Position numbers and translations under genes: made by a program. 64,000 nt of DNA from Candidatus Micrarchaeota archaeon (GTDB taxonomy: Archaea > Micrarchaeota > Micrarchaeia > Norongarragalinales > Norongarragalinaceae). Where the stretch lies: NCBI GenBank assembly GCA_016188965.1, contig JACPGT010000011.1, forward strand, positions 9,798 to 73,797, in the 5' to 3' direction. Shown here piece after piece: positions 12,272 through 48,476 of this stretch (position 1 is its first letter; every line of letters begins with the position of its first letter). The notes under the pieces are model-generated. The model was given only the letters and a program-made list of their open reading frames with translations. It was not told the DNA's origin and did not search any database.

Positions 12272-12965
12272 TTAGAAAATATAAACATTTAGTTGATTAG
12301 GGAGCGTCCAATAAATCATTGAATTAAAAAGGCGTGCGAGCGTTCGCACGTTGTGGGCGACGGCCCACAACATGCACGCGATGGTGCGCGTGCCTTTCTT
12401 TTGCTCTTCAACAGTGGAATGGTACCGTTTGGCGAAGCCACCAAATGGCGATTCCACTCGTCCACGCAACTTCTTGTACAACTCATCGTCGTATTCTTTC
12501 AGAACGCGGCCTCGCAGGCCGCGGTTCCACTCACAAGTAGAGCGTTGGCGCATGCAAACGCGCCAACGCTTCTTGTACGCTAAACGATAGAGTTTGAACG
12601 CGTCGTAGCCTTTGTCGGCCAAAAGCAATGACGGCGGCACGTCGGAACGCATGAATTCGTACCCGACGAGCACGTCGGGCACGTTGCCGTCCGTGATTTT
12701 GACTTTCGCAAACCAAACCGCGTGAGCGTTTTTCGAGTATTCTTCAAGGGCATGCAGCTTCAAATACGGTCGGTACTCGCCAGCTCTTTTGAAGCCAAAT
12801 GCCCGCACACTCACGCCCGTCGAGTCCAAAATAGCGCAGTCGGGTTTGAATTCCCGACGCAACCGTTCCGCCGTGCTGGAAATCAGGTTCTGCACCCACC
12901 ATTTTTCCAGCTTTTGGAACGCCCAATTCGAACACGAACACGGCAACTAGATTATCAACAGAGCC
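12272..12965 (-). mobile_element. IS5-family element remnant with N-terminally truncated DDE transposase
   Basis: ILDSTG, KLH, LLADKGYD, RGRVESPFG motifs; higher GC than the flanks; ends GGGAGCGTCCAATAAATC (12300) and GGCTCTGTTGATAATC (minus strand, 12965) resemble IS903-type termini. Confidence 0.8.
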
Positions 12966-13011
12966 GGACAAATGCACCATATTAATACGGGGTAAAACAG
13001 ATAGAAAAGTA

Positions 13012-13896
13012 ATGGAACGATTTTTTTCCACTCACTTAAAGAACAGTAAGATTTCAAGCCTAATTGAAATAGGCAGGCCATGGAATGGAATCGTTACTGG
13101 CCTACTAGGAGTCCTAGGGGTAGTATTAGCAATCGGAGGAACCATGCCGATTGAACAGACTAGCCTGATATTCTTAACATTTCTCACAGCGTATTTAGGC
13201 GGAGCAATTGTTAACGACATTTTCGACACCGATGTCGATAGAGTGAATATGCCATACCGGCCAATAATGCAAGGACGAGTGACGGTAAAAGAGGCAAGCG
13301 TAGTTTCGGGAATTTTACACATAATGAGCTTGGCAATAGCGTTTATTGTAGACCCTAAATTATTCGGATTTACAATATTATTTCTAATTTTGAGTTTGTG
13401 TTATTCAATGCCGCCAATATATTTTGTCAGGCGTGGAGCCTTAGCACAAATAAGCCTGGCATTGATTACGTCAGTAATACCCATATACGCTGGGGCCGCA
13501 GTGGCAACAAAAAATATTGAACTTCCGACATTAACCATCATGCAAATAGCGGCATTCTCCGCACTATTCGCATTCATATTTTTACTGAAGGATTTCAAAG
13601 ACTTGGAAGGGGATTTAGAAGGCAAAAAAATGACGGTGGCACTTCTTGCAGGGCCAGAATTAACAAAGAAAATTACAATTATTGGAACAATAGTGTTCTT
13701 TTTGGCAAGTCTAATATTGTTCAATCAAAAAATAAACTCGGCCTGGTTCATTGGCGCCGGCATAACCACATTACTAGCATTGATTATGACCGAGAGTGAG
13801 ATTATCAAATATCCGGAAAAAATGTTCGGACAGGCAAGATTGTTATTACTCACATACGTGGTGTTGATCTTCTTAGGACTACAGCACATCATCTAG
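13012..13896 (+). CDS. UbiA-family prenyltransferase (DGGGP synthase-like)
   Basis: RPWN, NDIFDTDVDRVNMPYRPIMQGR, KDFKDLEGD, multiple TM segments. Confidence 0.88.
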   Translation: MERFFSTHLKNSKISSLIEIGRPWNGIVTGLLGVLGVVLAIGGTMPIEQTSLIFLTFLTAYLGGAIVNDIFDTDVDRVNMPYRPIMQGRVTVKEASVVSGILHIMSLAIAFIVDPKLFGFTILFLILSLCYSMPPIYFVRRGALAQISLALITSVIPIYAGAAVATKNIELPTLTIMQIAAFSALFAFIFLLKDFKDLEGDLEGKKMTVALLAGPELTKKITIIGTIVFFLASLILFNQKINSAWFIGAGITTLLALIMTESEIIKYPEKMFGQARLLLLTYVVLIFLGLQHII

Positions 13897-13897
13897 C

Positions 13898-15157
13898 CTA
13901 AAGTTTTTCCTTCACTAACAGATTTTTGCCCGTAGATAAAACGTACTTTAGCCACCAACCGGCAAACAAAACGGTGACTAATGCTGATAAAACAATTGCC
14001 ACAAAAAACTTCTCACTGATAATACCAGATTCAAATGCGATTGTTGCGACAACAATCCCAAGCGCTCCACGGGCATTTAATGCAACAGACAAATTAAACG
14101 AAGAAAGCCACGAAAAACCCAAAATTCTTGAAGTTAGTAGTACAGAAACGCCCTGAATCAATGAAGAAGCAAGCAAAAAGTAGACAAACAGGGAAAAGTC
14201 CAAGCTTGCGATTAAATCAATCTTCAGACCAACAAGAGCAAAATAGATTGGGACAAAAAAAGCGAAAGAAAATTCTCGGATATGCATCATGGCATTCTGA
14301 ATTACAGGTAAAGAAAACGCACCCAAAAATACTCCGGCCAACATTGCGCCAAAAATAAGATTAATGTTAAGATAATAGGTTAAAACAACAAAAAATAGTA
14401 CGAAAATTAGGACAAAATTTAGAGTCAGAGTGGGCGAAAAATCAGAGGAAGGCTTTTTGCGCACTAATTCATTAAGTCGTGTAGATAAGAAAATCACTAC
14501 AAATAATATTAGAATCGTGAGAATGAATTGTAAATAAATGGAATCCGAAGCTAAAGTAGAGGAGTTAGTTAATTGCGTAGCGATTGCAAGTAAAACCCAG
14601 ACAAGAATATCGTGAACAGAAGCTACACTTAAAACGATACTTGAAAATCTAGTTTTAATTATTCCCAAATCAAAGAAAATTTTGGAAATTACCGGTATAG
14701 AGGTAATGGCAATAGCAGCGGCAACAACAATTCTAAATGCGTCTAAATTTGTATCGGAACCAATTAACTCAGAAACATCCACTAAGCCCAGACCAAACCA
14801 GCCAATAATCAAAGGTAACAAAGTCGAAGTAACTACCAAAGCCAAAACAGGTAAATGATCGTCCTTTGAAAAGTTGTTTCGAATCTCAGACCCAGAAACA
14901 AAAATAAGAAAAATAAGGCCAATCCAATAAAACAAAAATAAAAAGTCAGTTGCGGGAAGAAAAGAGGTTTTAAAAAAATCAGGGAAAAATTGCCGGAAAA
15001 GACTAGAACCAAGAATAAGCCCGCCGAAAATTTCACCAAAAACACTGGGTAAACCCATTCTCCTAAATAACACGCCAAAAAAAAATGCAAAAACCATTAA
15101 CAAAAGTAATGAAACAAAGAAGAATGGAAACCCCAAAGTTTCATTAAAAGAGAGCAT
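13898..15157 (-). CDS. Cation:proton antiporter (CPA2/Kef-like)
   Basis: PSVFGEIFGGLILG, ITSIPVISKI, FFVPIYFALVG, LNARG; ~12 TM. Confidence 0.9.
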   Translation of the reverse strand: MLSFNETLGFPFFFVSLLLLMVFAFFFGVLFRRMGLPSVFGEIFGGLILGSSLFRQFFPDFFKTSFLPATDFLFLFYWIGLIFLIFVSGSEIRNNFSKDDHLPVLALVVTSTLLPLIIGWFGLGLVDVSELIGSDTNLDAFRIVVAAAIAITSIPVISKIFFDLGIIKTRFSSIVLSVASVHDILVWVLLAIATQLTNSSTLASDSIYLQFILTILILFVVIFLSTRLNELVRKKPSSDFSPTLTLNFVLIFVLFFVVLTYYLNINLIFGAMLAGVFLGAFSLPVIQNAMMHIREFSFAFFVPIYFALVGLKIDLIASLDFSLFVYFLLASSLIQGVSVLLTSRILGFSWLSSFNLSVALNARGALGIVVATIAFESGIISEKFFVAIVLSALVTVLFAGWWLKYVLSTGKNLLVKEKL

Positions 15158-15169
15158 GTTTTTTCCTAA

Positions 15170-15859
15170 TTACACGGGCGGCTTAGGGGAAGAAGCGGTT
15201 AACGACGAATCATTACTTAATTTTAGATACCAATCGGAATCAATCCCTAGTTCCTTGAGAAGAGCCATCTGTTTTGGAATAATATAGTCCAAATCAATTT
15301 GAGACCGTACGAAATCAGGCTTAACCATTTTAGATAAATTCTCATTTGAAGCGCTAATAAACTGACATTGAGTTCGAGTCTCAGCACAGCACTCAAACTC
15401 AATGCAATTCATTATTCGTTCGTGTACTACCGTACTTCCACCGGCATTCATTCCCCTCAAAAGATGATCAACTAAACCCGAACCTTTAGGATACTGCAAA
15501 GCAAAAGGATTGGAAAAAACGTTGTACTTAGCAAAACCGGGGTAGAATTCAACGGTTTTGAAGTCGCCAAATCCAATCATTGCTGCAATTTCCATGACAA
15601 CTTTGTAACGTTCTTCGAATTTCTTTAAATTGAACGCATCAGCAAGGCGTTTGGTAAATGTATACCCGAAAACCCAACCTTCAAAGTATAAGTCGTTTAA
15701 AGATTCGGGACCATGACGAGTTGCGTCGTCATTCATTTGCTTCAGGGTCCGCATTGACAGAATCGCCATAGGCGAACCCAATAAATCTATTTCGCCTTGT
15801 TTGAATTGAAAATTGCCTGAAACTAAGAGTTTGGTCACAAACCCGTAAAGACCAATCAT
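15170..15859 (-). CDS. V4R-domain protein
   Basis: GFG...NPFA...DHLLRGMNAG...CIEFECCAETRTQCQF pattern typical of V4R. Confidence 0.75.
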   Translation of the reverse strand: MIGLYGFVTKLLVSGNFQFKQGEIDLLGSPMAILSMRTLKQMNDDATRHGPESLNDLYFEGWVFGYTFTKRLADAFNLKKFEERYKVVMEIAAMIGFGDFKTVEFYPGFAKYNVFSNPFALQYPKGSGLVDHLLRGMNAGGSTVVHERIMNCIEFECCAETRTQCQFISASNENLSKMVKPDFVRSQIDLDYIIPKQMALLKELGIDSDWYLKLSNDSSLTASSPKPPV

Positions 15860-15865
15860 GAAAAA

Positions 15866-16627
15866 TCACTTCATCATGATGGACATTCCTTCGGCGGTAA
15901 TTAAAAAGCCATCCTTAGAAATTCCGAAGGGAAAAAAGCCCTTCTTTTGACTTGTCCACCGCATTTTCCTTATCTGGAGATTTCTAGAATTTTCTCCACC
16001 GAGACCAAGATAGTACATGGAAATAATACCATCACACATGAATTCACTAATTCCATCACTGCTTAAGAGACTAGACTCATCAGGAACATCGGTGATAAGC
16101 AAACTAGTCGTATTTTTCAAGTTTTTTAACGCACTGATAAAATAATGGATGAGCATCCTTCGGATTGACTCTTCGGAAATACTAGTAGTAGGTTGTTTCT
16201 GAGTGATGAGGCCAACTAAGCGGTCGGCATTACGTAGCATTGCGGGATAATTTTGTAAAGCAGTGAGTGAGTCAATTACTAAGCGAACTGAACCCGCGCC
16301 TTTGGGGATAATTTCTTTTATCAAATCGAAAATGTTCTGCTCGGCCAAGATATCTACGTGGCGTACTATCAACTTACCAGACTTTAGATGTTTTATTAAA
16401 TCCCAAGAAAAACCGTCAACTTGGGATAAGATATCCGCTTCACTTTGTTCAAAGGAGAGGAATACGCCATATTCGCCAGCCTCACAACCGCGATAAAGAG
16501 TCTCGAGACAAAAAATAGTCTTCCCAGTACCAGGAGATCCTGAAATCAAAATTACCGAGCCCTTTGGTAAACCACCTTCGACTAGCTCATCGAAGCCAGG
16601 TACGCCAGTAGGTATTCGCTCAACCAA
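15866..16627 (-). CDS. KaiC/RAD55-like ATPase (single domain)
   Basis: RIPTGVPGFDELVEGG, GSPGTGKT, VIDSL, IRKMR. Confidence 0.9.
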   Translation of the reverse strand: MVERIPTGVPGFDELVEGGLPKGSVILISGSPGTGKTIFCLETLYRGCEAGEYGVFLSFEQSEADILSQVDGFSWDLIKHLKSGKLIVRHVDILAEQNIFDLIKEIIPKGAGSVRLVIDSLTALQNYPAMLRNADRLVGLITQKQPTTSISEESIRRMLIHYFISALKNLKNTTSLLITDVPDESSLLSSDGISEFMCDGIISMYYLGLGGENSRNLQIRKMRWTSQKKGFFPFGISKDGFLITAEGMSIMMK

Positions 16628-25124: not shown

Positions 25125-26129
25125 ATGTTGGACGCCTTGGACCAAGTCGGCCGCCAAATGCAGGAACGCCGAGCAAAGCCGCTGGGCCAGCCGTTTTTTT
25201 CTGACCCCCGTTACGAAGCCGTGGCATTCGATAGGTCGCGTTTCGTGCCGCTGGAAGGCAATGTGCGGTACTTGGCCGCCGTGGACGGGGGCAACCAGGA
25301 ACTCATCGGCGGAGCCTCCGTCTCGCTGCAGCTGGTGCGGGCGTACGCCAACGTCTTTGGAGGAAAAAAGCGGGCGCACCAGGAAAAGCACGAATTCTTG
25401 TGCTTGACGCAGGCGGTGGACGGCGAGCGTTTTGAAAGCCGCATCATCCCACTGAAAGGCGGATTGTTGCAAGAGGAAGGCGTGCTGGAAATGAGCGCCT
25501 CGGAAGTGCCGGACAGTGACGAGCGCACCAAAGCGGCGCAGATCGGCAGCCTGACGCGGCGCTTTGCCGAGTGGGCGTTGTGCGAGCGCATCCTGGAGAA
25601 ATTCGACGACATTTTGGTGCTCAAGGACGGCACGCTTCAGACGTCGGTGCGGCGCGAAGCATTCTATGCCCGGCGGGCACAGGAGCGCGTGCGATCCGGA
25701 AAATTCCTGGCGTCACTGTCCAAGACGTGCACGCTGCTGACCAGCACGGGTTGGAGCGTGACGGATGCCGTCGAGCACATGGCGCCGCAAAGCCGCGGCG
25801 AATGGGCGTATCAGTGGTTGGCAGAAAGCAAGCATCCGGATCACCCGGCGCGCATCGGCTGCGCCAAACTGCACAAGGCGGCGCGGCAGTCGTTCCGGCT
25901 GGAGTCGTTCTTGGGCCATGAATCGCTGCCGTTGGAGTCGTTGGCGGAAAACGCGTGCGATCCGGCGTTTTTGGGTTATCCCTATGCCTTGGTGGATGCG
26001 GACCGCAATGCCAAGGTGACCAACGCGGAGTGCGGATCGTTCAAGGGCCTGGCCGCGGCTAAATTGGGCCGGAAGTTGGACGAAGCGGCGCGCCACACCG
26101 ACGCGCACGCGTGGTTAAGCAAGCTATAA
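25125..26129 (+). CDS. nurA: NurA nuclease
   Basis: AAVDGG, LKDGTL, SKT, GYPYALVDAD; adjacent to herA. Confidence 0.88.
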   Translation: MLDALDQVGRQMQERRAKPLGQPFFSDPRYEAVAFDRSRFVPLEGNVRYLAAVDGGNQELIGGASVSLQLVRAYANVFGGKKRAHQEKHEFLCLTQAVDGERFESRIIPLKGGLLQEEGVLEMSASEVPDSDERTKAAQIGSLTRRFAEWALCERILEKFDDILVLKDGTLQTSVRREAFYARRAQERVRSGKFLASLSKTCTLLTSTGWSVTDAVEHMAPQSRGEWAYQWLAESKHPDHPARIGCAKLHKAARQSFRLESFLGHESLPLESLAENACDPAFLGYPYALVDADRNAKVTNAECGSFKGLAAAKLGRKLDEAARHTDAHAWLSKL

Positions 26130-26159: not shown

Positions 26160-27629
26160 ATGGACATTGTTTCCCAGATCGTCGGAGGCCAGCATGCTGA
26201 CATCCTGCTTCGGCAGAAAAGCGGCGCAAACCTGGAGCTGGGCGAATTGTTGGTGGCGCAGGAGCCCGGCTCGGCCGACCGCATCCTCCTTCAAGTATTC
26301 GACTTGGTCTACGGCAGCCAGATGCAGGAAGAAGCCCTGCAATGGGCGTCCGGATTGCAGTTGGAAAACGTCTCGTCCGAACCCTTCCTCGAAGCCGAAT
26401 TGCGCAACTACGTCCTGGCCAAAGTCAAAGCCGTGGCGCACATCCGGGATGGCGTAGCCAAGACGCCCAAGAGCCTGCCGCGTTTCTTCTCCGCATTGCG
26501 GCGCATCCAGGACGACGACTTGGCGTTCCTGGAGAACCCCAAGATGCCGCTGTTTGCAGGCCAAGTGCGCTCGGGAAGCAAATGCCTGGATAAGCAGGTG
26601 ATGCTGGACGGCGCACAAGTATTGCCCACGCACGTGCTGATTGCCGCAGGCACGGGTAAGGGAAAATCGAATTTGACGTATTGCATGCTATACCGCTTGT
26701 TGGATTCGGATTACGCCGGCGTTTTGGTGTTGGATCCGCACAACGAATACTACGCCAAGCTTTCCGGCCACCCCAAAGCGGAGCGGGGCCTGGCGGCATA
26801 CTCGCCGAATCCGCAACGCGGCGCGTTGAGCATGGCCATCAACTACGAAAGCGTCAAGCCCTGGCATTTTTCTGGAATCGTGCCATTCACCGACGCCCAG
26901 AACGATGCCACTTGGATGTACTTCAAGCACTTCGGCAACCGCTGGCTGTACGAAGTCCTCTCCGAGAAGCGCGGCGAGAAGACGCAGGAGTGGATTGACA
27001 ACCGCCGCCTGCACGAAGGCACTTTGGCCGTGCTGCAGCGCCGGCTCGAACTGGCGTTGGACAAGTCCATTTTCCGGCCCGAAGGCGGACTGACCACGGT
27101 CAGGGACATTTCCGACGCGCTGGACGCCGGACGAAAAGTGGTGGTGGACACCTCGCGTCTGGCGTCGAATACGGAGCTGCTCATCGGCAGCATCTTGGCC
27201 CATGAGACGTTCGAACGCTCGCGCCGCAATCCGGGCCGAATCAAGAGCATCGTCATCGAGGAGGCGCCGCGCGTGTTGCGCGAAGGCGAGTCCAACGTGT
27301 TTTCCAGCATCGCGCGCGAAGGCCGCAAATTCGGCGTCGGACTCATCGCCATCACCCAATTGGCATCCATGATCCCGCGGGAAGTGTTGGCCAACATGAA
27401 CACCAAGATCATCCTGGGCAACGAGATGCGCGCGGAGCGCGAAGCGCTCATCGCCTCGGCGGCGCAAGACCTGACCGACGACAGCAAGGCCATCGCCGGG
27501 CTGGACAAGGGCGAAGCCGTCATTTCCAGCGTGTATACGAAATTCGCCATTCCGGTGCAGTTTCCAAAGTTCGAGGCTATGGCCGCACAGGATGCAATGG
27601 CGCCGGCCGCGGTCCGACGCTTCGCCTGA
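26160..27629 (+). CDS. herA: HerA helicase/translocase
   Basis: HAS-barrel-like N-terminus, [26 protein letters not shown]. Confidence 0.9.
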
Positions 27630-27679: not shown

Positions 27680-30600
27680 ATGCGCGCGCAAGGAACCTTT
27701 GAATACGTTTTACTGCTGGGCGGCGCCCTCCTGGTCACGTCCCTCGCGCTTTTCGTGCTCACCACCAGCCAGCCCGGTATTGACGCGAACAAGCAATGCG
27801 CTATCGCCGCCCGCCAAAGCCTGGAATGTTTCGGCCCAAGCGGCGCGTTCAACGAGGCCGCGACGTTTTCCTTCCAAAACCAGAAAACACCGTGCACTTG
27901 CGTCACCGGCAACACCGGCGCTACGCCCATCCCGACGCCGTCCTTGAATCCCACCGCCACGGCAACACCGGACCCAACGGTTTCCGGTTCCCCAACCGCA
28001 TCGGTGAGCCCCACCGCATCCGCAACACCGACCGACACCCCCGGTCCCACGCCTTCCGCAACGCCAACAGCGTCAGCTACCCCGACTCCGACAGGATCGC
28101 CAACACCGTCATCGACACCAACCGCAACGCCGATTCCGGCGCAGGTGGCCCTGATTGTCCCGGACGGCACGGTCCTTGAAGGAATGGCGCATCTGCAGTT
28201 CGCTTCGGCCGGCGCCCCTATTACGCCTAAAGAACTAGCGGTCGAAAACGCGATCCGGTCATACGGCACACCGCTGAAGCCGTTGGTCGTTATGCGCGTC
28301 GAGGCTTCCGCCGCCACGTTCGACAACTTGAAGGATTACAAGGCCGTGTTTGCCGCGTCGTACTTTCCACAACTCACGCCGGCAACCATCAACAGCTTGC
28401 TTGGCAGAGGAGTAAGCGTCGCACTGCTGCACGACGCCGTGGGCTCCGGGCAGGGCCGTCCGGCCAGCGCACGCAGCGAGACAGGCGTCAAGGTATCGCA
28501 AAGCGCGGCCTTCTTTGACAAATACGACACGGCGGAGCAGTACGCGAGCATGACGACCGGCGGGAACGACTACACGTTCAACATTGGCGGGTGGCAAACC
28601 ATCGGCGCCGTCGACATACCGTGGAGTTATCCGGTGCCCACCGCCCAGTACACCGTTTCGACGGCAAACGGAAGGGGCGCGGCATTGGGATACGACCCGT
28701 CGGCGCTGACGGATGAAGGAAAAGTCGTGATGGATCAGATGCTCCGCTGGACGCTGGGCATTATCGCGCCGTCGGACGTGGTGGACGGCAGAGTGGCCCT
28801 GGTTGCATCGACTTACAAGGACAACCCGCAGGACATTGACTTGGACGCCCAAGATAAGACGTTGAAAAGACTCATGGAGGAAAACGGACAGGCCGTGCAA
28901 ATCATATCGCAGAAGAATAGGTTTACCGCGGATTTTGCCAAGGCCAAGGCAATCACAACGACGTATTTCCCTGGCGTTCCGCTTTCAAAGTACTACAACG
29001 CGCTGGGCGCCACGACCCCGCTTTTGCTGGTTCACCGGGCCGCGAGTCTGATTCGATACCAGCAACCCTGCATGAATTGCCAGTGGATGCATGTGTCGGC
29101 AAGCGTGTCGTTCCTCGGCAAGTATGACGCGGGCGACTACGCAATGCAAATCACGAAAGGAGGGGATGCCGCTTACGCGACAACGTTGTACAACGGATGG
29201 ACCCAGATTTCACGCAATCCGGGTTATGGATACGACGGTGCGTCGCATTACCGCGCCGTTGGAAAAATGTATAGTGCGTCGTTCGGCTACGACCCGTCGC
29301 GGCTTACGCCGGAAGGCGAACTAGTCCTGGGTGAAGCCATCGCCAACGTCACGGGTGGCGCTCCTGCCAAACAAGCTCAACCCGGCGCGTATGTACTCAT
29401 AGCGAAAAGCTATGACGCGGTCCCGCAACTTACGGCTGAGGAATCGGCCGCAAAAACCGTTCTGGAATACGGCGGAGCTGCGGTACAGGTAATCCCGCAA
29501 AATGAACGCTTCAAAACCGACTTCTCGAACGCAAAGGCCGTCGTCGCAGTCCATTCGCCCCCGGCTAAGATTTCCGGATACATGCAAGCACTTAGTTCAC
29601 GCCGACCCATGCTTTTCCTTCACGATGGAATCAGGCTGCTGGCGGGCGCCAATGACGCATCCGGCGGTAACCTGATGATCCTTCCCAAAACGGGATCGAA
29701 CGTAGGAAAAGGATTCCTCCAGAATTACGACTCGGCTCCAAACTATGCCGAAATCCACATCAGCGACGGCAAGATGTTCGAGACCGGTGGCGTCGGCGGA
29801 TGGGAGGCGTTGAACCAACGGGGCGGGTGCGGAGGAGTATGTTATCCAGGGTCGGCGTTTTCAAAGGAAACGGGAACCGGAGATGGGAGCATCCGCAGCG
29901 CGATACTCGCGCACGATCCGTCGGCCTTAAACAATGAAGGGAAAGTGATGCTCGACGAAGCGGTGCGGTGGATGGCGCACGACAGCGCGTACGCGTACAC
30001 CGTGCCTTCCGGAACGGTCGCCCTTTTGACCCGCGATTACAACTTCGACAATAAAGTACAACCCGGTTTGACACTCAACGAAACGCAGGCGGAAAGCGTG
30101 TTTACGGGCCTCGGACTACCGGTGGCACGGGTGCCGCAAAAGCTGAAATACAAGACGGATTGGAGCAAAGCGGCGTTCGTCGCGGTCGCGGATTCGCCGC
30201 CCAGCGGGTACAGCATCAACACGTACCTCAACACCCGCGCGCCGCGAATGGTTTTCCTGAACACGGGACTCAAAGCGCTAACGATGGGCACAGGAGTTAC
30301 CCTCAAGAACAGCTATGAAGTGCTTAACACGGCTGACCGGCCGGAAAGCTTCATGCAAGCCTATGCCCCAACGGACCACCGGGGCGGAGCGTTCCCAATA
30401 CAAGCCAATCCAGGAGCGTACACGCTGCCGGACTACGGCACGAGCGGCAGCTGGAACGTGTGGGGATGGAAAACGGCAGGAGGGGAAGTGGACAGCAATC
30501 CGGCAAACTACGCGGTGCGCCCAACGGCGTGGTACGTCAAGAACGCGGCCAGGTGCGGCGCTGCGTTCGGATACGCGCCTGACCGCTTGAACCAAGCCGG

Positions 30601-31177
30601 GACGCTGTTGTTGAAAAACGTAATCCGATGGGTGTACCACGCGTGCTATCTGCCAAGCAAAGGCGCGGCAAGCAGCGAAACGGTAGAAACAGTGCGACCC
30701 TACTACAGCGCTGCGACGGGAACGCAAGGAGCGGGCCAGTACTCATACAGCTGCGGCGCGGGCCGTGGCGAAGACACCAAGAATATCATGATTGGCAGCG
30801 GAATCAACGAGTACGTCTACAAAGTCGAGCTTGAAAGCTACAACATGGATGACACGGGCGTTGTCGAGATAAACGGCCAAACCGTCGTCAACAAGGATGT
30901 GTGCAGCTACGGCCAGAATACGCCATGCAGCGGCGGGCCGACCAGCGTGCCGGGACGGGAATGCAAAGGCGGCTGTGCTTGGACCGGCTCCGGGTGGGGC
31001 CCGTACCTGACAACTCCTGAAAACGGTTGTGTAAGGCCGCCGAAGGTCAATCCTCAAATCACGTTGGGCATGCTTCATGAAGGCAGCAATCCGGTGCACG
31101 TGAAGGCGAACGACTGCATATGCGGCCAAAACACGGCAGAAGCCACGATCAAAGTATACAAAAAAACCGCGCCATGA
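27680..31177 (+). CDS. Large class III signal peptide (pilin-like) surface protein
   Basis: MRAQG-TFEY plus hydrophobic helix, Pro/Thr linker, four ~190-aa repeats, Cys-rich C-terminus. Confidence 0.85.
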   Translation: MRAQGTFEYVLLLGGALLVTSLALFVLTTSQPGIDANKQCAIAARQSLECFGPSGAFNEAATFSFQNQKTPCTCVTGNTGATPIPTPSLNPTATATPDPTVSGSPTASVSPTASATPTDTPGPTPSATPTASATPTPTGSPTPSSTPTATPIPAQVALIVPDGTVLEGMAHLQFASAGAPITPKELAVENAIRSYGTPLKPLVVMRVEASAATFDNLKDYKAVFAASYFPQLTPATINSLLGRGVSVALLHDAVGSGQGRPASARSETGVKVSQSAAFFDKYDTAEQYASMTTGGNDYTFNIGGWQTIGAVDIPWSYPVPTAQYTVSTANGRGAALGYDPSALTDEGKVVMDQMLRWTLGIIAPSDVVDGRVALVASTYKDNPQDIDLDAQDKTLKRLMEENGQAVQIISQKNRFTADFAKAKAITTTYFPGVPLSKYYNALGATTPLLLVHRAASLIRYQQPCMNCQWMHVSASVSFLGKYDAGDYAMQITKGGDAAYATTLYNGWTQISRNPGYGYDGASHYRAVGKMYSASFGYDPSRLTPEGELVLGEAIANVTGGAPAKQAQPGAYVLIAKSYDAVPQLTAEESAAKTVLEYGGAAVQVIPQNERFKTDFSNAKAVVAVHSPPAKISGYMQALSSRRPMLFLHDGIRLLAGANDASGGNLMILPKTGSNVGKGFLQNYDSAPNYAEIHISDGKMFETGGVGGWEALNQRGGCGGVCYPGSAFSKETGTGDGSIRSAILAHDPSALNNEGKVMLDEAVRWMAHDSAYAYTVPSGTVALLTRDYNFDNKVQPGLTLNETQAESVFTGLGLPVARVPQKLKYKTDWSKAAFVAVADSPPSGYSINTYLNTRAPRMVFLNTGLKALTMGTGVTLKNSYEVLNTADRPESFMQAYAPTDHRGGAFPIQANPGAYTLPDYGTSGSWNVWGWKTAGGEVDSNPANYAVRPTAWYVKNAARCGAAFGYAPDRLNQAGTLLLKNVIRWVYHACYLPSKGAASSETVETVRPYYSAATGTQGAGQYSYSCGAGRGEDTKNIMIGSGINEYVYKVELESYNMDDTGVVEINGQTVVNKDVCSYGQNTPCSGGPTSVPGRECKGGCAWTGSGWGPYLTTPENGCVRPPKVNPQITLGMLHEGSNPVHVKANDCICGQNTAEATIKVYKKTAP
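27735..27801 (+). repeat. 67-bp exact direct repeat, copy 1
   Basis: TCACGTCCCTCGCG...AAGCAATGCGC identical to 31393-31459. Confidence 0.9.
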
Positions 31178-31337
31178 CCTCGAGAATCGCCATGGAACGC
31201 GAAACCAACACGACAAAGACACCCGGCAAACCATCCCCCAAAAAAATGGCCAACGCGCTCCGGCTTTCGGCCTGAAAAAAAGAGACTTGAAAAAACAAAA
31301 TACGATACATTTAAACGCAAAGGCATATTCCTAAACT

Positions 31338-32699
31338 ATGCGTGGCCAAGGCACGTTCGAATACATCCTACTGTTAGGTGGCGCAGTCCTCATCACGTCC
31401 CTCGCGCTTTTCGTGCTCACCACCAGCCAGCCCGGTATTGACGCGAACAAGCAATGCGCCGTCGCCGCCCGGTCGGCAATCGAATGCTTCAAAGCCGACG
31501 GCACATTCCGCGGCGACGCCACCTTCCAATTCAACGACAAGCTGACGCCATGTAACTGCGCGGCATACGAAAGCGCAACGGCAACACCGTCCGGTTCAAC
31601 GCAATCGCCATCGCAAACGCCGACGGCCACGACGGCGACGCCGACCGTTAGTCCCGTCGCTTCCACTGCGACGCCTACGGCTACGCCCACGGCTACTCCG
31701 AGTGCGACCCCGACAGCCACCCCCAGCGCCACGCCGGAACCGACCGGTACACCGATGCCTACCGTTACGGCCACGCCGATTCCCACGACAACCGCTACGC
31801 CCACACCGACACCAACGGCAAAGCAGTACATGATCTATGACTTTGCGCCCACATGCGATACATGCAATAACAAACGGGTGCTTATCGTCGAAGTTTCTGC
31901 AGGGCAAGCAAAGATAGTTTCGAAGCTGGACGGAGTGTACGCGGATCATGTCGTACCGTCAGGTAATGGCCGCTTGCTTCTTTCAAGAAGCGCAGAAAAA
32001 GAAATTCGCGAAATCGATTCTGGCGGTAACACAGTATGGACTTACAGAAAAGAGTTTGCCAAAGGTCCTAATTGGGCCGAGGATTTAGTCCCGTACACGG
32101 CGCAACGGCTCAAGAACGGAAACACGTTCAGCGGAAGTTTCGATGGGCCGTATTTTGACTCGCGGCTTCTGGAAATCAAGCCGGATGGAACAATCGTAAA
32201 CGACGTACACGGAACGTCGTTCGAGCCCAAAACCGCCTTCCGCCTGCCCAACGGAAACGCATTAGTGGTGGATAAGTGGCAAAGCGTCAAGGAAATCGCA
32301 CAAGGGGACATACCGGGGCAAGCGATAGTGAAATACTCGATTACGGCCGGCAGTTTGGGCCTCACGCAAATCATTTACGCATATCCGGTCGGGGGGAACC
32401 TCTTCGTGTACGGAAGCGGAAAGATTGTCGAAATGAGTAACTATCAAACTGACGCGCGAGCCAAGACGTGGGAAAAACAAGTGGGCGACATCGACCACTT
32501 TTTCCCGGTGGACGAGAACACGTTGCTTGTCGCAGACCGATGGGGCAAGGCAGTGTACGAAATGGACAGAACAGGAGCCAAAACATGGGAGTTGAGAAAC
32601 TCGCTGGACCTTGGCAACTACTGTAGTGAAGCCGGCATCGTAAACTATCCGTGCAGGCCTCTCCAAATCTACCCCGCGGGGTTCACAGGGTACGGTTAA
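31338..32699 (+). CDS. Class III signal peptide (pilin-like) protein with beta-propeller-like domain
   Basis: MRGQG-TFEY, Pro/Thr linker, repeated RL.NGN / EID..G..VW motifs. Confidence 0.85.
   Translation: MRGQGTFEYILLLGGAVLITSLALFVLTTSQPGIDANKQCAVAARSAIECFKADGTFRGDATFQFNDKLTPCNCAAYESATATPSGSTQSPSQTPTATTATPTVSPVASTATPTATPTATPSATPTATPSATPEPTGTPMPTVTATPIPTTTATPTPTPTAKQYMIYDFAPTCDTCNNKRVLIVEVSAGQAKIVSKLDGVYADHVVPSGNGRLLLSRSAEKEIREIDSGGNTVWTYRKEFAKGPNWAEDLVPYTAQRLKNGNTFSGSFDGPYFDSRLLEIKPDGTIVNDVHGTSFEPKTAFRLPNGNALVVDKWQSVKEIAQGDIPGQAIVKYSITAGSLGLTQIIYAYPVGGNLFVYGSGKIVEMSNYQTDARAKTWEKQVGDIDHFFPVDENTLLVADRWGKAVYEMDRTGAKTWELRNSLDLGNYCSEAGIVNYPCRPLQIYPAGFTGYG
31393..31459 (+). repeat. 67-bp exact direct repeat, copy 2
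   Basis: Identical to 27735-27801. Confidence 0.9.
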
Positions 32700-32753: not shown

Positions 32754-33995
32754 ATGGCCCGCTTTGCCCACATTGCAGACGTCCACCTCGGTGCTTTTCG
32801 TGACGCGCGCCTGCGCGAGTTGAACCTTAGGGCCTTCGAGAAGGCGTTGGACGAAGTCCAGCAGCAGAACGTCGATTTTCTCATCATTGCCGGCGACTTG
32901 TTCGACATTTCCATCCCCGACTTGTCGGTCGTCGAGCGCGCGGTGCGCAAGATGCGTTCGTTGGATAAGCCGATTTACGCCGTGTACGGATCGCATGACT
33001 ACTCGCCTACGCAGACGAGCGTCATCGACGTGCTGAACGAAGCCGGTGTGCTGCAAAAAGTCAGTTCGGGCCAGTACGTGGAAGTCAACGAAGCCGGACA
33101 AAAAGTGCAGAAACTCCGTTTGGACGTGCTGACCGATCCGAAGACCGGCGTGCGAATCACCGGCATTTCGGCGCGCAAGCTGGGTTTGGAAAAAACGTAC
33201 TTTCACGACTTGGACGCCCAGGCATTGGAGGCGCTGCCGGGTCCGAAGATCTTCGTCTTTCACTGCGCCATCCAGGAACACAAACCGCAGTCGCTGCAAC
33301 GCGTGGACGCCGTGCCGCTCTCGCTGTTTCCAAAAGGCTTTGATTATTACGCCGGCGGCCACGTGCACGCCCGCCTTCTGACGGACGCGCCGGACGGCGG
33401 GGGCAAAATAGTATACCCGGGCCCCCTGTCGGCCGCCGACTTTAGAGACATGGAAGAGATCGCGGGCCAGCCGCACGGCTTTTACGTCGTCGACCTTGAC
33501 GCGAAGAAAGCCGAGTTCGTTCCCGTGCCTTTCGGGAAAGTCCGAATCGTCCGCATCGACGCCGAAGGCATGGGCTCGCAGGATGCGAATGAACGCATCC
33601 AGAAAGCCTGTGGCACGGCGCAAAGCGGAGACGTGGTTCTTCTGCATACACTCGGCACGCTGGCAGAGGGAAAACCGTCCGACATCGACTGGACGGCCGC
33701 GCGGCGCGCGTTGGAACAGGCATGCCCCATCGTCTACGTCAACAACGCGTTGGAAAGCCGCGAGCGGCAACAGGTCCGGGTCGAGGCGCAGACGCCGGAT
33801 GCCATTGCCGAAAAAGTGTTCCGAGATACGTTGGCTGACCGCGACCTGCCGGAAGGTCTTGGAAAAGAAGCGGGCGTCAAGCTCAGCCTGCAACTGCTGG
33901 AAGTATTGCGCAAAGAGAATCCGGGAGACAACAAGAAACGCTGGGAAGACGTCGTCGCGGCGCAAGGCGCACAGGTGCTCGGAATTGAGGCTTGA
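32754..33995 (+). CDS. mre11: Mre11 nuclease
   Basis: ADVHLG, GDLFD, GSHD, GGHVH, YPG; upstream of rad50. Confidence 0.92.
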   Translation: MARFAHIADVHLGAFRDARLRELNLRAFEKALDEVQQQNVDFLIIAGDLFDISIPDLSVVERAVRKMRSLDKPIYAVYGSHDYSPTQTSVIDVLNEAGVLQKVSSGQYVEVNEAGQKVQKLRLDVLTDPKTGVRITGISARKLGLEKTYFHDLDAQALEALPGPKIFVFHCAIQEHKPQSLQRVDAVPLSLFPKGFDYYAGGHVHARLLTDAPDGGGKIVYPGPLSAADFRDMEEIAGQPHGFYVVDLDAKKAEFVPVPFGKVRIVRIDAEGMGSQDANERIQKACGTAQSGDVVLLHTLGTLAEGKPSDIDWTAARRALEQACPIVYVNNALESRERQQVRVEAQTPDAIAEKVFRDTLADRDLPEGLGKEAGVKLSLQLLEVLRKENPGDNKKRWEDVVAAQGAQVLGIEA

Positions 33996-35994
33996 GTTCC
34001 TCGAATTAGACAACATCCGCACGTACGGCTACGCCCGCGTCGACTTCGCCCAAGGCGTGACGCTGTTTGAAGGCGACGTCGGCTCGGGAAAGAGCACGCT
34101 TTTGTACGCAATCGAATTCGCACTTTTCGGCCTGGGCGATTTGAAAGCCGGCCACTTGTTGCGCCACGGCGCGACGGAAGGCAACGTCAAGTTGGGCTTC
34201 GAAGTCGACGGCCGAAAAATCGTCGTTTGCCGCCGTTTGGAGCGCAAGAAAGACGCCGCACGCCAGGCGCCGGGTTGGATCGAGGAAGACGGCGTGCGCA
34301 CCGATTACTCGCCGGAAGAACTCAAGGCCCGCGTCTTGTCCATCTTGCAGTTCCGTGAGAACCCGGCGGTGCGCGCCACGTCGTGGATCTTCCGCTACGC
34401 CGTGTTCACGCCGCAGGAGCAGATGAAGGAAATCCTGACGCTGAAAAGCGAGGAGCGCCTCCAAACTCTTAGAAAAGCCTTCGGTGTCGAGGAGTACAAG
34501 ACCGCGCAGGAAAACGCCGGCGTGCTGCAGCAACGGTTGCGTGAGAAAAGCCGGGAAATCAGAGGGCAATTGTCCAACGTCGAGGAATTGCAACAGCAGA
34601 AAGCCGCCGTGGAAAAGCAGCTGGCCGAATTGGAAAGTCAAAAACCCGCACTGGCTCAACGAGTCCAAGACGCGCAAATGCAAGTCCAAGCCGCGGAAAA
34701 GGACGTGCAAAGCCGGCGGGCCGAAAGCCTGGCGCTTGAGCGCGAAGCGGCTGAAGTGCCCTTATTGCAAAAACGCGTGGAAGAATGGCAACGCCAAGCC
34801 GCGCGCCTACAGAGCGACGGGGCGAACCTGGACGGAAAAGCCAGGCAGTGGGCCGCCGAGCTCAAGACCCTCCAAGGCCAGAACCCGGCCGCATTGGACG
34901 ACCCGCAGAAAGAATGGGAAGCCGCCCAGGAAACCTTGCGCAGACGCCAGACGGAACTGGGCGCTTGCGAGCACGCCGCGCGCGAACACGCCGCGTTACG
35001 CTCCGGTACCTGTCCAACGTGCGGGCAGAAGATTTCCGACGGGCTGAACGGCAAGATCCAGGACGCGGAGAATGCACTCAAGCAGGCACAAATGGCGGTG
35101 CAAATGGCCCGCCAAGCCGAGATGGCGCTGCGGAACCAACTGACCGCATACAACCAGCAGAAACTGGCGTTGCAGAAAATCCAACAGCTTTCCGAGATGT
35201 TCCAGCAGGCTGAAACCCAGCGTCAGGACGTCAAAGCCCGCGAAGCTGAAGCCTTACAGTCCCTCCAACAGGCCCGTGACGAATTCGAACGCAAGAAACA
35301 CCACCTGCAAGCCGCAAGCGACGCCAAAGCCAACCTGCAACAAACCGAAAACACCTTGCGCCAAAATCAGGCGGCCTTGCAGGCCACGCTCAGCGCCCAG
35401 GCCGCGTCCGAGGCCAAGGAAAGCCACCTCAAGCAGAATCGTCAGGACCTTGAAGCCGCGCTGGAGCGAAAGAAACAGCTGGACGTGAAGCTGAAGGATC
35501 TTGAATCGAAGAACGCCTGGCTGGCCGATCCGTTCATCCCCGCGCTTTCGCTCATCGAGGAGCACGTCTTGCAGCGCATCAACGACGAGTTCAACCGCAT
35601 GTTTTCCAGATGGTTCGTCCAGCTGCTGGAAAGCCAGGACCTCTCCGCGGAAGTCGACGCGTCGTTCACGCCCCAAATCCGGCAACAAGGATTCGAGCAG
35701 GACTTCACCGCCTTGAGCGGAGGCGAAAAAAGCGCGTTGGCGTTGGCCTACCGCTTGGCCCTCAACACGTTGGTGCGCCAGACGACGCCGTCGTTGAAGC
35801 ACAACCTGCTCATCCTTGACGAGCCGACGGATGGCTTTTCCAAAGAACAGCTCGGCCGCATGCGCCAAGTGCTGCAAGAAGCGGGCGCGCAGCAAATCCT
35901 TTTGGTTAGCCACGAGCGCGAACTGGAGGCCTTATGCGACCAGGTATTTCAGGTCGAAAAACACGGCGGCGAATCGCGCATCAAGGAACTATAA
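33985..35994 (+). CDS. rad50: Rad50 ATPase (TTG start)
   Basis: NIRTY, GDVGSGKST, coiled coil with CPTCG zinc hook, LSGGE, LDEPT, SH. Confidence 0.93.
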   Translation: MRLEFLELDNIRTYGYARVDFAQGVTLFEGDVGSGKSTLLYAIEFALFGLGDLKAGHLLRHGATEGNVKLGFEVDGRKIVVCRRLERKKDAARQAPGWIEEDGVRTDYSPEELKARVLSILQFRENPAVRATSWIFRYAVFTPQEQMKEILTLKSEERLQTLRKAFGVEEYKTAQENAGVLQQRLREKSREIRGQLSNVEELQQQKAAVEKQLAELESQKPALAQRVQDAQMQVQAAEKDVQSRRAESLALEREAAEVPLLQKRVEEWQRQAARLQSDGANLDGKARQWAAELKTLQGQNPAALDDPQKEWEAAQETLRRRQTELGACEHAAREHAALRSGTCPTCGQKISDGLNGKIQDAENALKQAQMAVQMARQAEMALRNQLTAYNQQKLALQKIQQLSEMFQQAETQRQDVKAREAEALQSLQQARDEFERKKHHLQAASDAKANLQQTENTLRQNQAALQATLSAQAASEAKESHLKQNRQDLEAALERKKQLDVKLKDLESKNAWLADPFIPALSLIEEHVLQRINDEFNRMFSRWFVQLLESQDLSAEVDASFTPQIRQQGFEQDFTALSGGEKSALALAYRLALNTLVRQTTPSLKHNLLILDEPTDGFSKEQLGRMRQVLQEAGAQQILLVSHERELEALCDQVFQVEKHGGESRIKEL

Positions 35995-44289: not shown

Positions 44290-45138
44290 TCAACCGGCCA
44301 CCAGCGCCCAGACCAAGTCGCCGAAAGCCAGGCTGAAAAGAAGGCCGGCCAGCAGGTAGGGCCCGAAGCGGGGTAGATGACGGTAGACGGGCACGGTCTT
44401 TCTTTTTTTGGCAGACATGAAGTTCTTCAGTTTTCCCATGGCGGGAATCGTCAACACGCGTTCCAATCCGAAGCGAGTCACGTCCTTTTTGTCCAGTTTT
44501 TCCAAAGCCAAGACGTCTTCATCCAGGAGTTGGCCCAGCGTCTGTGGCGCGACGACGGCGTAATCCACCACGTCTTGGCGGTAGATTAGATAGAATGCGG
44601 CGGGAATCCCAAAAAGCATGATGAACGCCTGGCCGGACATGCCGAAGGGCAGCAGTAGGGATAACGCCACGACGGCCGCGAAACCGGTCAGAAATAAAGC
44701 CGCTTTCTTTCCGGGAAACTTTCCGCGTTGCCGCAGCAAGTCGGCATACCAAAGTGCCGAGCCGGCGGATGCTAAAAGCGACGCTGCCAGAAAGACGCTT
44801 AACACGAAAGGCCAGAACACCGGAGTGCGAACAAAGGGAGAAACGGGCAGCCATAGCGCCAAGCCGGACAGCAGCAAGACGTCCCCGCCGCCGAATTGGC
44901 CGGCGCGGTACGAAAAGTAGCCCACGATGCCGATGAGGGCGGCGGCCAGCACTGGCGGCCACATCTGGGAAAAAGGAAGGAAGAACACGTTCCAAAGCAG
45001 TCCGGTAGCCAGGAAAGCGTACAGCACGCGTTCGTCCATGAAACTGGTTTTGTGGTCCTGCCAGGCCAATACGGCCGTGACCAAGACGGCGACAAAGACA
45101 CGGATCCAGGCGTCAAACGGCAGTGCATCGAACAACAT
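44290..45138 (-). CDS. Prepilin/class III signal peptidase (A24)
   Basis: QD, FGGGDV (GxGD), PRFGPYL, multi-TM. Confidence 0.88.
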   Translation of the reverse strand: MLFDALPFDAWIRVFVAVLVTAVLAWQDHKTSFMDERVLYAFLATGLLWNVFFLPFSQMWPPVLAAALIGIVGYFSYRAGQFGGGDVLLLSGLALWLPVSPFVRTPVFWPFVLSVFLAASLLASAGSALWYADLLRQRGKFPGKKAALFLTGFAAVVALSLLLPFGMSGQAFIMLFGIPAAFYLIYRQDVVDYAVVAPQTLGQLLDEDVLALEKLDKKDVTRFGLERVLTIPAMGKLKNFMSAKKRKTVPVYRHLPRFGPYLLAGLLFSLAFGDLVWALVAG

Positions 45139-47072: not shown

Positions 47073-48476
47073 TCAGGCCGATTTTTTGTAGTACTCGTCC
47101 AAAAAGGCCGCGAATTGAGCATGGTCCGATAAGCCCTGTTCCAGCAGGTAGTCGAGCATCTTCTTGCGCGACGAGACTTCATCCATGATGTCTTTCGGGC
47201 GTTTGCCAGTGCCGTTGGCCAACTTCTCGATAGTGCCGGCCGGATTCGGCGTGCGTTCAATCGAATCGTTCTCCGAATTCCACGCGTAGACCTCGTTGAT
47301 AGCCGGCCCGTTCTCGCCTGGAAACACTTCCGTCACCTGCACCACCCGGCGCACCAAGCCGCGGCGGCGATCGTAGAAGCGCTGCTGGACCACGATCAAA
47401 TCGGCCAGCGGCAGAAGCGAGCGGGGCACGTTCATGGGGTTGTTCTCCAGGCGCGTGATGGCATCGCGCGCGTTGTTCGAATGAAACGTACCCGAAGCGC
47501 CGCGCAAGCCCGTGTTCATGGCCGTAAATAGCGTCTCGGCTTCCGAAGAGCGGATTTCGCCCAGGATAAGCCGGTCCGGACGCATGCGAAGCGAGTTAGT
47601 CAGCAGTTCCTGCGCCGTGGTGTGCGTGCCTGAAATCAACGGAACCCAGTTCTGACGGCCCACCAAGTTCAACTCGGGCGTGTCCTCGATGGAAATGATG
47701 CGTTCATTCGGCGGAATCAGGCTGGACAACGCGTTGAGCGTCGTGGTCTTGCCCGCCGCGGCCGAGCCGACGATGAGCACGTTCAACGGGTAGAGGCGCA
47801 AACCTTCGAACGCGACCCACAAAAAAGCCGCGACTTCCGAGGAAATGGTGTTTTCCTTGATGAGGCCCAGCAAGGAGAAGGGGCGCTGGTGGAAAAGCCG
47901 GACCGTAACGGCTGGAAACGGCGCGGCAGGCGATTTGATGACGTTGGCACGCGAGCCGTCCACCAGACGCACGTCGTCGTACACGTTCTTGGACCCGAAC
48001 TGCGAAAGGAGCGCGTCCAGGCTTTTTTCGTCGAAACGGAGGTTGGTGTTGCATACGCCGGCTTTGCGGTGGTAGACCATGACGGGCGTCTCGGTGCCGT
48101 TGATGAAGACTTCCTCCAGTTCGTCATCATCAAAAAGCGGTTGGATGACCTGGTAGCCGTAGAAGCGGCGCAGAACGGCGCGGGCGATGGCCGCCGGATT
48201 CTTCGCACCCGACAAAAGCATGGACAAAGCCGACAGCAGTGCTTCGGATTTCTTGCGTTGCAGGGGAAGGCCGAATTCCAGCACGTCCAGCGAATTCATG
48301 AATTCCTGCCAACCGTTAACGTCGAATGCGTGCGTCTGGCAGAACGACGGCAACAACAACCGCCTCTCCACGAGGGCCACGACGTCGTTGAACACGGCCA
48401 CGTCACTGCCGGACAACGCCTCGGGCTGGACGTCGTACATCGAAAACGGAAAACCCTTGGATACGGTGGCAGGCAT
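47073..48476 (-). CDS. Type IV pilus/secretion ATPase (TadA/VirB11-like)
   Basis: DDELEEVFING, GSAAAGKTT, IEDTPEL, LRMRPDRLILGEIR, TFH. Confidence 0.92.
   Translation of the reverse strand: MPATVSKGFPFSMYDVQPEALSGSDVAVFNDVVALVERRLLLPSFCQTHAFDVNGWQEFMNSLDVLEFGLPLQRKKSEALLSALSMLLSGAKNPAAIARAVLRRFYGYQVIQPLFDDDELEEVFINGTETPVMVYHRKAGVCNTNLRFDEKSLDALLSQFGSKNVYDDVRLVDGSRANVIKSPAAPFPAVTVRLFHQRPFSLLGLIKENTISSEVAAFLWVAFEGLRLYPLNVLIVGSAAAGKTTTLNALSSLIPPNERIISIEDTPELNLVGRQNWVPLISGTHTTAQELLTNSLRMRPDRLILGEIRSSEAETLFTAMNTGLRGASGTFHSNNARDAITRLENNPMNVPRSLLPLADLIVVQQRFYDRRRGLVRRVVQVTEVFPGENGPAINEVYAWNSENDSIERTPNPAGTIEKLANGTGKRPKDIMDEVSSRKKMLDYLLEQGLSDHAQFAAFLDEYYKKSA

Follow-up and report, generated by a model that had tools for sequence, protein, structure and literature searches.

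Two predicted modular type IV pilin-like proteins bearing a gene-converted N-terminal module in a Candidatus Micrarchaeota genome

The 64,000-nucleotide stretch of DNA analysed here (the window) comes from contig C15 of a Candidatus Micrarchaeota genome (G000; 1.37 Mb, 21 contigs, 89% complete, 58% G+C), and two tandem genes in it, termed gene 1 and gene 2, are described. The results indicated, with a probability of about 0.6, that both genes encode modular type IV pilin-like surface proteins that bear a class III signal, in which a short N-terminal module would be a family-wide display handle for otherwise unrelated domains (payloads) and bears a tract of short-patch conversion. This tract is an identical run of 67 bp in the two modules, which the tandem paralogs have come to share through recent gene conversion of a short patch. 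The relatives used for comparison (among them G001 and G002 of the same genus and G009 of another genus of the same family) are labelled as groundwater Candidatus Micrarchaeota, of the DPANN group, with genomes of 0.7-1.6 Mb, which fits the original prediction, made from the letters of the window, of a probable DPANN symbiont. The coordinates of the features are collected in Table 1.

Constant module and its family

The two proteins were compared by BLASTP and found to be alike in residues 1-74 only, where 53 of the 74 residues are identical (E 1e-32); no second similar segment scored better than E = 4. Behind the leader MRA gene 1 continues as QGTFEYVLLLGGALLV, and behind the leader MRG gene 2 continues as QGTFEYILLLGGAVLI. 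The basic leader ending in Gly or Ala, Gln+1, Glu+5 and a hydrophobic stretch of about 20 residues, by which a class III signal is recognised, are present in both genes. The mature end of both proteins reads QGTFEY(V/I)LLLGG, Tyr+6 included, before the hydrophobic stretch is entered, and in each of them the segment of about 45 residues after that stretch contains four Cys, at residues 37, 47, 69 and 71 of the mature protein. Tyr+6 is also found in the bacterial Flp motif, G/XXXXEY. The architecture originally proposed, a class III signal, a cap and a Pro/Thr stalk followed by unrelated payloads, was borne out by BLASTP, Pfam, alignment and the motif table. According to the available text of PMC3875500, Gln+1 and Glu+5 after a Gly-ending leader are the marks of the DUF361 pilins processed by EppA in Methanococcus.

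The module is not confined to these two genes, as a search of the genome found the 74-residue segment at eight places at E<=1e-3, that is in at least eight genes. Besides genes 1 and 2 these are two genes on C9 and C11 which are cut by contig ends, a paralog of 552 aa with Cys-rich repeats (C4:27437), one of 920 aa (C20), one of 1410 aa with a GH114 glycosidase domain (C1:158380), and a small pilin lying beside assembly machinery (C4:69427). The first 27 mature residues are identical in this small pilin and the two giant paralogs on C20 and at C1:158380. Among 41 genomes searched, G000 included, the module was matched at E<=1e-3 in 38, and full-length matches with 49-53% identity were obtained only in G001, G002 and G009. 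About 27 module proteins were present in public data, nearly all of them from relatives labelled Candidatus Micrarchaeota. When 28 module proteins were lined up, the pattern Q-x-x-FEY after a leader ending in R-G or R-A was seen in 27, the 28th being cut at its start; the C-x9-C pair is found in 27/27 and the distal C-x-C in 24/27. Scoring of 8000 candidates from a set of 5.8 billion proteins revealed 22 longer proteins (170-1974 aa) matching the module profile at E<=1e-5; by their precomputed Pfam annotation, GH114, melibiase-like, trypsin-like and LamG plus Kazal domains are among the payloads. A published description of this module was not found, and the supplements of PMC13705601, which lay outside the search, may list such proteins.

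Some irregular members were also seen. Upstream of the C9 copy (C9 ~227-330, minus strand) a second, broken 'MRGQGTFEY' start is followed by an in-frame Pro/Arg-rich stretch, and a similar stretch precedes the C20 copy (C20 ~28374-28550, minus strand); genes 1 and 2 are not touched by this. A PD40-propeller protein (C1:270233-271909, minus strand, locus L078) has a cap-like C...C...C-x-C behind an N-terminus in which MVRA is followed by QSSW, with no Glu+5, and could belong to the family in a decayed or diverged form.

Payloads, machinery and display

The payload of gene 1 was confirmed to consist of four repeats and a Cys-rich tip, as originally described. The repeats are about 200-215 aa each and 22-30% identical pairwise. 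A profile of the repeat matched 142 copies in 41 of 184 sequences, with two to seven copies per protein. Pfam analysis of 29 repeat proteins gave no family for 18, a type IX secretion sorting tail for nine and CARDB for one; by the Pfam-less proteins and the sorting tails, the repeat is an unnamed extracellular domain common to bacteria and archaea. The wider repeat family (P0036-P0079 and others), with two to seven tandem copies, comprises archaeal proteins and bacterial ones that end in type IX secretion tails, among them giants of 4318-7108 aa. Within the order, the repeat was detected in 4 of 68 genomes (G000, G001, G002 and G009) and the gene 1 tip in 3 (G000, G001 and G009). A second four-copy protein of G000 (C1 ~378.3-382.4 kb) has a lipoprotein-type signal and no pilin module, and the only repeat protein of G002 is its ortholog. 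The repeat profile and the tip gave 0 matches to PDB sequences at E<=10. The clusters matched by the repeat in the ESM Atlas (score 0.92) were unnamed bacterial ones, one called 'xanthan lyase fragment', DUF4960 and DUF2194, and the tip reached at most 0.86; these values are leads only. A ThuA/GATase1-like fold for the repeat was unsupported, as Pfam at E<=10 gave a single ThuA match for one of 12 copies (E 0.13). Homology of the tip with the small Cys-containing end domains on C2 and C9 was likewise not supported (hhalign probability 1.8%; BLAST against P0001 E>=3.9), the likeness being limited to a short 'DDxG..(I/L)NGxxV' motif.

The payload of gene 2 gave 80 matches at E<=0.01 (best 9.7e-8, 24-37% identity) to propeller proteins of about 310 aa, and its homologues (E 1e-7 to 1e-2) carry PF14269, PF05935 and PF13360, which are arylsulfotransferase-like or PQQ-like. 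No Pfam family was obtained over its cut-off for gene 2, PQQ_2 scoring 14.3 against 27.6 bits (E 0.032). The earlier description as propeller-like therefore holds with respect to the distant homologues, while the Pfam match of gene 2 itself is weak. By its homologues, the payload is a distant relative of the arylsulfotransferase-like and PQQ-like beta-propellers and is itself no filed member of them. Of 26 genomes in the family two gave a match to it, G000 itself and, weakly, G012. BLASTP found no significant likeness (E = 0.12) between gene 2 and the propeller-like protein of 308 aa encoded next to the gene 1 ortholog in G009.

The genome encodes machinery that could process and assemble such proteins. 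The window contains a prepilin peptidase and a second assembly ATPase (Table 1), and the main pilus locus (L074, C4 ~65.4-69.8 kb) holds a T2SSE ATPase (164.2 bits) and two T2SSF platform genes (71.1 and 62.3 bits) together with small PF04021 proteins at C4:69003, 69113 and 69424, so that ATPase, platform and small pilins stand in one locus. Two platform genes with one ATPase form the layout of archaeal type IV filament (T4F) system 1, known in methanogens and Nanobdellati (DPANN) from the available text of PMC13705601. In the mechanism proposed here, the A24 prepilin peptidase would remove the short basic leader and thereby expose a mature end with Gln+1, Glu+5 and Tyr+6 in QGTFEY(V/I)LLLGG, followed by the hydrophobic helix and by a mini-domain of about 45 aa with two likely disulfides (C-x9-C ... 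C-x-C). The helix would retain the protein in the membrane, or would enter into or onto a filament by means of an Epd/Tad-like machinery made of one T2SSE ATPase, two T2SSF platform genes and three small pilins. The flexible Pro/Thr stalk would keep the payload off the cell, namely the four repeats with the Cys-rich end in gene 1 and the beta-propeller in gene 2, and conversion would keep the handles alike, presumably so that one peptidase and one assembly platform fit all. Leader cleavage, disulfide formation, filament incorporation and ligand binding are all predicted from sequence.

In view of the A24 peptidase and the pilus locus with small pilins, the closest known kind of system is the bacterial 'modular pilin'. 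PilB and PilC of Streptococcus sanguinis (Raynaud et al. 2021, PMC8179133) are alike in having a small class III pilin module, a linker and a bulky module, and the available text of that paper gives many architectures with lectin-like or enzyme modules, for which a tip location is proposed. In genes 1 and 2 a pilin-like module is likewise followed by a linker and then by domains unrelated to pilus biology. The differences are that the bacterial set is defined by the N-methylation signature IPR012902, which is bacterial, whereas an Epd/DUF361-type Gln+1/Glu+5 is found here; that the module is much smaller (about 70 aa, four Cys) and its linker is a long Pro/Thr stalk; and that the payloads reach 1165 aa (gene 1), with total lengths to 1974 aa in the family. 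Epd pili, or T4F system 1 (PMC3875500; PMC13705601), share the Gly-ending leader, Gln+1, Glu+5, the ATPase with two platform genes, small major pilins and scattered extra pilin-like genes, some of them large. Tyr+6 is kept in the present module, unlike in the Methanococcus pilins of the available text of PMC3875500, and for Epd pili the available portions of these papers describe no four-Cys cap, no Pro/Thr stalk and no such range of payloads. The bindosome proteins of Sulfolobales, which bind sugars and bear a class III signal, are also encoded away from their base machinery (PMC13705601, available text), but genes 1 and 2 contain no solute-binding Pfam family and adjoin no ABC transporter, their neighbours being nurA, herA, mre11 and rad50, and the payloads here are repeats, a propeller and hydrolases.

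Several points weigh against the reading as modular pilin-like proteins, while the Pfam scores fall on both sides. The gathering cut-off of PF04021 (Class_IIIsignal, DUF361 type) is 23.7 bits, and in the scan of whole proteins gene 1 (18.4 bits) and gene 2 (22.1 bits) stayed under it, while the six-frame scan of the genome placed both above it (24.2 and 26.7 bits), with 24.7-25.1 bits for paralogs and up to 29.7 bits for relatives. Type IV filament systems are described as rare or missing in DPANN in the available text of PMC13705601 and 10.1101/2020.05.14.094862, and so a working pilus is no given; this lineage is an exception to the stated rarity of type IV filament parts which is worth noting. 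A protein of 1165 aa cannot be a repeating filament subunit and could occupy a tip or rare position at most. Enzyme payloads such as GH114 and trypsin-like domains suit a general export and anchor signal as well as a pilus, and the four-repeat payload is also carried on a lipoprotein anchor.

The last two points also speak for the likeliest alternative, in which the module is a bindosome-like general export signal and membrane anchor only, and the proteins are stalked surface enzymes or binders that never enter a pilus. This account is possible though rather unlikely. It is favoured further by the melibiase-like and LamG/Kazal payloads, by the very large size of module proteins (up to 1974 aa), by the position of genes 1 and 2 apart from the assembly genes in G000, and by the existence of class III signal proteins other than classical pilins (PMC13705601, available text). 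Glu+5 is retained in 27 of 28 module proteins and counts against it. In type IV pilins this residue matters for assembly and not for export. The helix shared by the two giant paralogs with the small pilin beside the machinery also argues for a filament, as does the gene order of G009. There the ortholog of gene 1 lies directly before mre11-rad50, and upstream of it on the same strand are a propeller-like gene, two platform genes and an assembly ATPase, while its herA is on another short contig. Among the contextual evidence, this link to assembly genes is what best supports a role in a pilus. According to the available text of PMC13705601, bindosome proteins also need a T4F-type base, so that the line between the two accounts is thin.

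The reading as modular pilin-like proteins would extend the 'modular pilin' idea from bacteria to archaea, in a lineage that has a complete assembly set, a private conserved mini-pilin handle and large proteins displaying very different domains, from a new repeat and a propeller to glycosidases, proteases and lectin-like modules. These large display proteins are concrete candidates for the host contact by which DPANN archaea would recognise and hold their hosts. An adhesin for host attachment, as first suggested, is one possible use, since the payloads of the family also include hydrolases (GH114, trypsin-like).

Gene conversion, recombination and the herA-mre11 interval

The identical run was analysed at the nucleotide level. 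The two copies (Table 1) match exactly over 67 bp, are not extendable by one base either way and form direct repeats 3658 bp apart; no third copy was found in the 1.37-Mb genome with up to 12 mismatches allowed. Over their 74 shared codons (222 nt) the genes differ at 60 bases. Same-residue codons number 32 outside the run, and 18 of these differ synonymously, whereas inside it 21 consecutive codons are identical, for which arithmetic from the codon counts gives (14/32)^21, or ~3e-8. The reported identity amid differing synonymous sites was thereby confirmed. A GENECONV-style permutation was performed on five paralogous modules (ungapped 219 nt, 138 polymorphic sites, 10,000 column shuffles). 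The run of 47 polymorphic sites without a difference between gene 1 and gene 2 was reached in 0 of the 10,000 shuffles, and so was the run of 74 between C9 and C11; the run of 18 between gene 1 and C9 had p = 0.003, and the remaining seven pairs gave p values from 0.08 to 0.99. The synonymous sites and the permutation together support the recent gene conversion proposed for this anchor.

The repeat was also examined in Logan contigs of four runs (X1-X4) of one study, some of which are possibly the source of this DNA. These contigs are built from 31-mers and stop at repeat edges, and so cannot tell which flank joins which. The contigs break at the edges of the repeat (27764/27772 and 31422/31430), and the 67-mer forms its own contig at about double depth (13.5 against 6.9-8.1 for the flanks in X2; 18.7 against 8.4-9.2 in X3). 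The repeat is therefore not an assembly artefact, as independent contigs of the four runs agree with it. Small variants were also seen between runs: a contig of X1 at about a quarter of the depth has four changes inside the 67-mer, X1, X3 and X4 contigs show an in-frame loss of 3 nt in repeat 2 of gene 1 (29118-29120), and X4 contigs show an in-frame gain of 3 nt in the Pro/Thr stalk of gene 2 (31629-31631).

The sequence is diverged on both sides of the tract, which is the mark of a non-crossover patch. As a patch within the anchor, the tract makes the constant parts alike and leaves the payloads in place, which is concerted evolution; the swapping of tip domains through it, as originally proposed, does not follow. 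The history of gene 1 is in accordance with homogenisation. Its module is 71, 70 and 63% identical to paralogs in the genome. Compared with its orthologs in G001 and G009, the identity of the modules is no more than 52% and 49%, although the payload of the G009 ortholog is 60% identical to its own. Both orthologs have a Cys-rich linker of about 150 aa in place of the Pro/Thr stalk, and a similar Cys-rich unit occurs in the C4:27437 paralog of G000. The closer paralogous modules and the different linker indicate that paralogs have either homogenised the front of gene 1 or supplied a replacement for it. This linker and the four-repeat payload on a lipoprotein anchor in a paralog both support the idea that anchors and payloads were shuffled in the course of evolution. 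As a case of concerted evolution in an anchor, the mosaic identity of these paralogs is small and clean, and it explains how genes of this kind come to break metagenome assemblies.

A second paralog pair was found on C9, C11 and C2. Two gene starts run off C9 and C11 and are identical over 119 bases, as far as C9 extends. The 141 bases that end C11 also open two 3' halves, one at an end of C2 and one at an end of C9; these halves are 97.4% identical over 310 bases and then pass into unrelated end domains. A 394-base contig at roughly double depth, present in all four runs, carries the piece common to these genes. The assembler was unable to pair starts with ends, and the pair is split over four contig ends (L003, L004, L087 and L088). 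The pair appears as two different starts and two different end domains linked by an identical repeat of cap plus stalk, ~394 nt long at most, and a 9-kb circle or a tandem arrangement is a possible solution of the graph.

Conversion between pilin paralogs is known from the pilE/pilS system of Neisseria, in which silent, 5'-truncated copies give variable C-terminal segments to one expressed gene. The present case resembles it in that pilin paralogs are converted, and differs in that two complete genes are involved, with the tract in their constant N-terminal part; a module query of G000 found no silent 5'-truncated donor copies.

A more active role was also considered, in which the shared anchor is a recombination handle through which payloads are exchanged or deleted in the population, the herA-mre11 interval being a variable adhesin cassette for host attachment. 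This is improbable. A crossover between the 67-bp repeats would delete the payload of gene 1 and fuse its start to the payload of gene 2, and the long identical cap-plus-stalk tract of the second pair does come near unrelated payloads and broke the assembly; the linker architecture differs among orthologs as well. Against it stand the divergence on both sides of the tract and the two complete genes with their own starts, no silent promoterless cassettes having been found. No recombinant joint was seen in the contigs of the four runs, though contigs built from 31-mers cannot show one. Two contig joints were discarded as unreliable, one from 33362 to 34386 in X1 (side 24) and one from 31698 to 26091 in X4 (depth 3.2, 19 foreign letters, in the Pro/Thr stretch).

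The interval itself was compared between relatives, HerA and Mre11 being on one contig in 9 of 26 family genomes, and the gap was taken as the distance between the two matches. Nothing lies in the gap of G018 (94 nt), G002 (108 nt; its HerA is 86% identical to that of G000) and G003 (115 nt). A small membrane protein is found in G014 (510 nt), a HAD hydrolase in G005 (586 nt), LemA plus an M48-type peptidase in G008 (2170 nt), and a small membrane protein and others in G006 (2357 nt). G001 (4727 nt) holds a single ortholog of gene 1 of 1383 aa, and G000 (5127 nt) holds genes 1 and 2. The expected variation in gene content was therefore observed, with zero, one and two modular genes in G002, G001 and G000, and this favours the idea of a cassette. 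The unrelated genes in the gap of other genera (G005, G006, G008 and G014) count against it and rule out a dedicated pilin slot. Judging by its varied contents, the herA-mre11 gap is a spot that is loose in general, and in two genera the gene 1 lineage has occupied it. The genes in these four gaps (L079-L082) are small and unrelated, including a conserved membrane protein of ~140 aa, and the operon is repeatedly interrupted here.

In its boldest form this account makes the pilin-type handle a recombination substrate for reshuffling or switching host-facing domains, with display perhaps tied to DNA-damage or DNA-exchange responses, and it must be regarded as improbable. If it were true, the tandem direct repeats would permit payload 1 to pop out and the ~394-nt tract of the second pair would permit exchange of whole payloads; that the gene 1 lineage sits within the nurA-herA / mre11-rad50 set, and directly behind the pilus assembly genes in one relative, could then be what ties adhesin display to such responses, with the UV-induced Ups pili of Sulfolobus as a parallel.

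An origin of the 67-bp identity without recombination, as an assembly chimera or as a selected nucleotide element (RNA structure, binding site), is very improbable and already largely refuted: protein constraint would account for part of the identity, since no other stretch of the module is as conserved at the protein level, but both copies were recovered with their own flanks in independent contigs at the doubled depth given above, the synonymous differences outside the run speak against it, and the other paralogs, with similar peptides, differ at more than 12 of the 67 bases, which argues against a conserved nucleotide element.

Feature coordinates and further observations

Table 1. Positions in the window of genes 1 and 2, their parts, the neighbouring genes and the processing and assembly genes
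Feature	Position	Strand	Basis
nurA, first of the nurA-herA ... mre11-rad50 set	25125-26129	+	NurA 28.5 bits
herA helicase, upstream neighbour	26160-27629	+	Pfam DUF87/HerA central domain 73.7 bits; stop 38-50 nt 5' of gene 1 start
Gene 1, predicted modular pilin-like protein, 1165 aa	27680-31177	+	ORF, BLASTP, Pfam; alternative ATG 27668
Gene 1 constant module: leader MRA, mature QGTFEY..., hydrophobic helix, four-Cys cap (C-x9-C ... C-x-C)	27680-27901	+	PF04021, alignment, motif table
67-nt gene-conversion tract, copy 1	27735-27801	+	Exact match, synonymous sites, permutation, Logan contigs
Gene 1 Pro/Thr-rich stalk, 79 aa, 0.81 P+T+S+A	27902-28138	+	Composition
Gene 1 four tandem ~200-aa domains, no Pfam family	28139-30667 (28139-28786, 28787-29383, 29384-30007, 30011-30667)	+	Self-comparison, profile
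Gene 1 C-terminal 'tip', 170 aa, 8 Cys	30665-31174	+	Sequence, genome search
AT-rich box CATTTAAA, ~25 nt 5' of gene 2 ATG, possible archaeal TATA box	31308-31315	+	Sequence reading
Gene 2, predicted modular pilin-like protein, 453 aa	31338-32699	+	ORF, BLASTP, Pfam
Gene 2 constant module: leader MRG, mature QGTFEY...	31338-31559	+	PF04021, alignment, motif table
67-nt gene-conversion tract, copy 2	31393-31459	+	Exact match; separate ~2x-depth contig in X2, X3
Gene 2 Pro/Thr-rich stalk, 88 aa, 0.85 P+T+S+A	31560-31823	+	Composition
Gene 2 payload, distant relative of ~310-aa beta-propeller proteins	31824-32696	+	Homologues, weak PQQ_2
mre11, downstream neighbour	32754-33995	+	Metallophos 58.5 bits; orthologs found
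rad50, start TTG 33985 by comparison with G009 ortholog	33985-35994	+	ORF list, ortholog
Prepilin (class III signal) peptidase, predicted leader-cleaving enzyme	44293-45138	-	Peptidase_A24 46.7 bits, cut-off 26.5
Second T2SSE-type assembly ATPase	47073-48545	-	T2SSE 97.2 bits

The AT-rich box ahead of gene 2 suggests that this gene may have a putative promoter of its own, and on reading the short gap between the herA stop and the gene 1 start no such box was visible.

The second T2SSE-type gene overlaps the first ~650 nt of a plus-strand open reading frame (47889-49982), in which the domains of a CCA-adding enzyme begin at residue 282; this frame probably has a later start. In G009 the HerA gene (L034, C76, 2662-4079) lies in two overlapping frames (2728-3015 and 3012-4049), which reflects a frameshift or a sequencing error, and the IMP dehydrogenase gene of the same genome (L073, C102, 6214-7716) has an intein-type insertion, with Intein_splicing and Hint matches inside the IMPDH domain. 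Positions 12000-16000 of the window form an island of low G+C (0.37-0.43 against ~0.58), possibly acquired DNA, which contains a DDE transposase (12272-12946), a UbiA prenyltransferase and a Na+/H+ exchanger.

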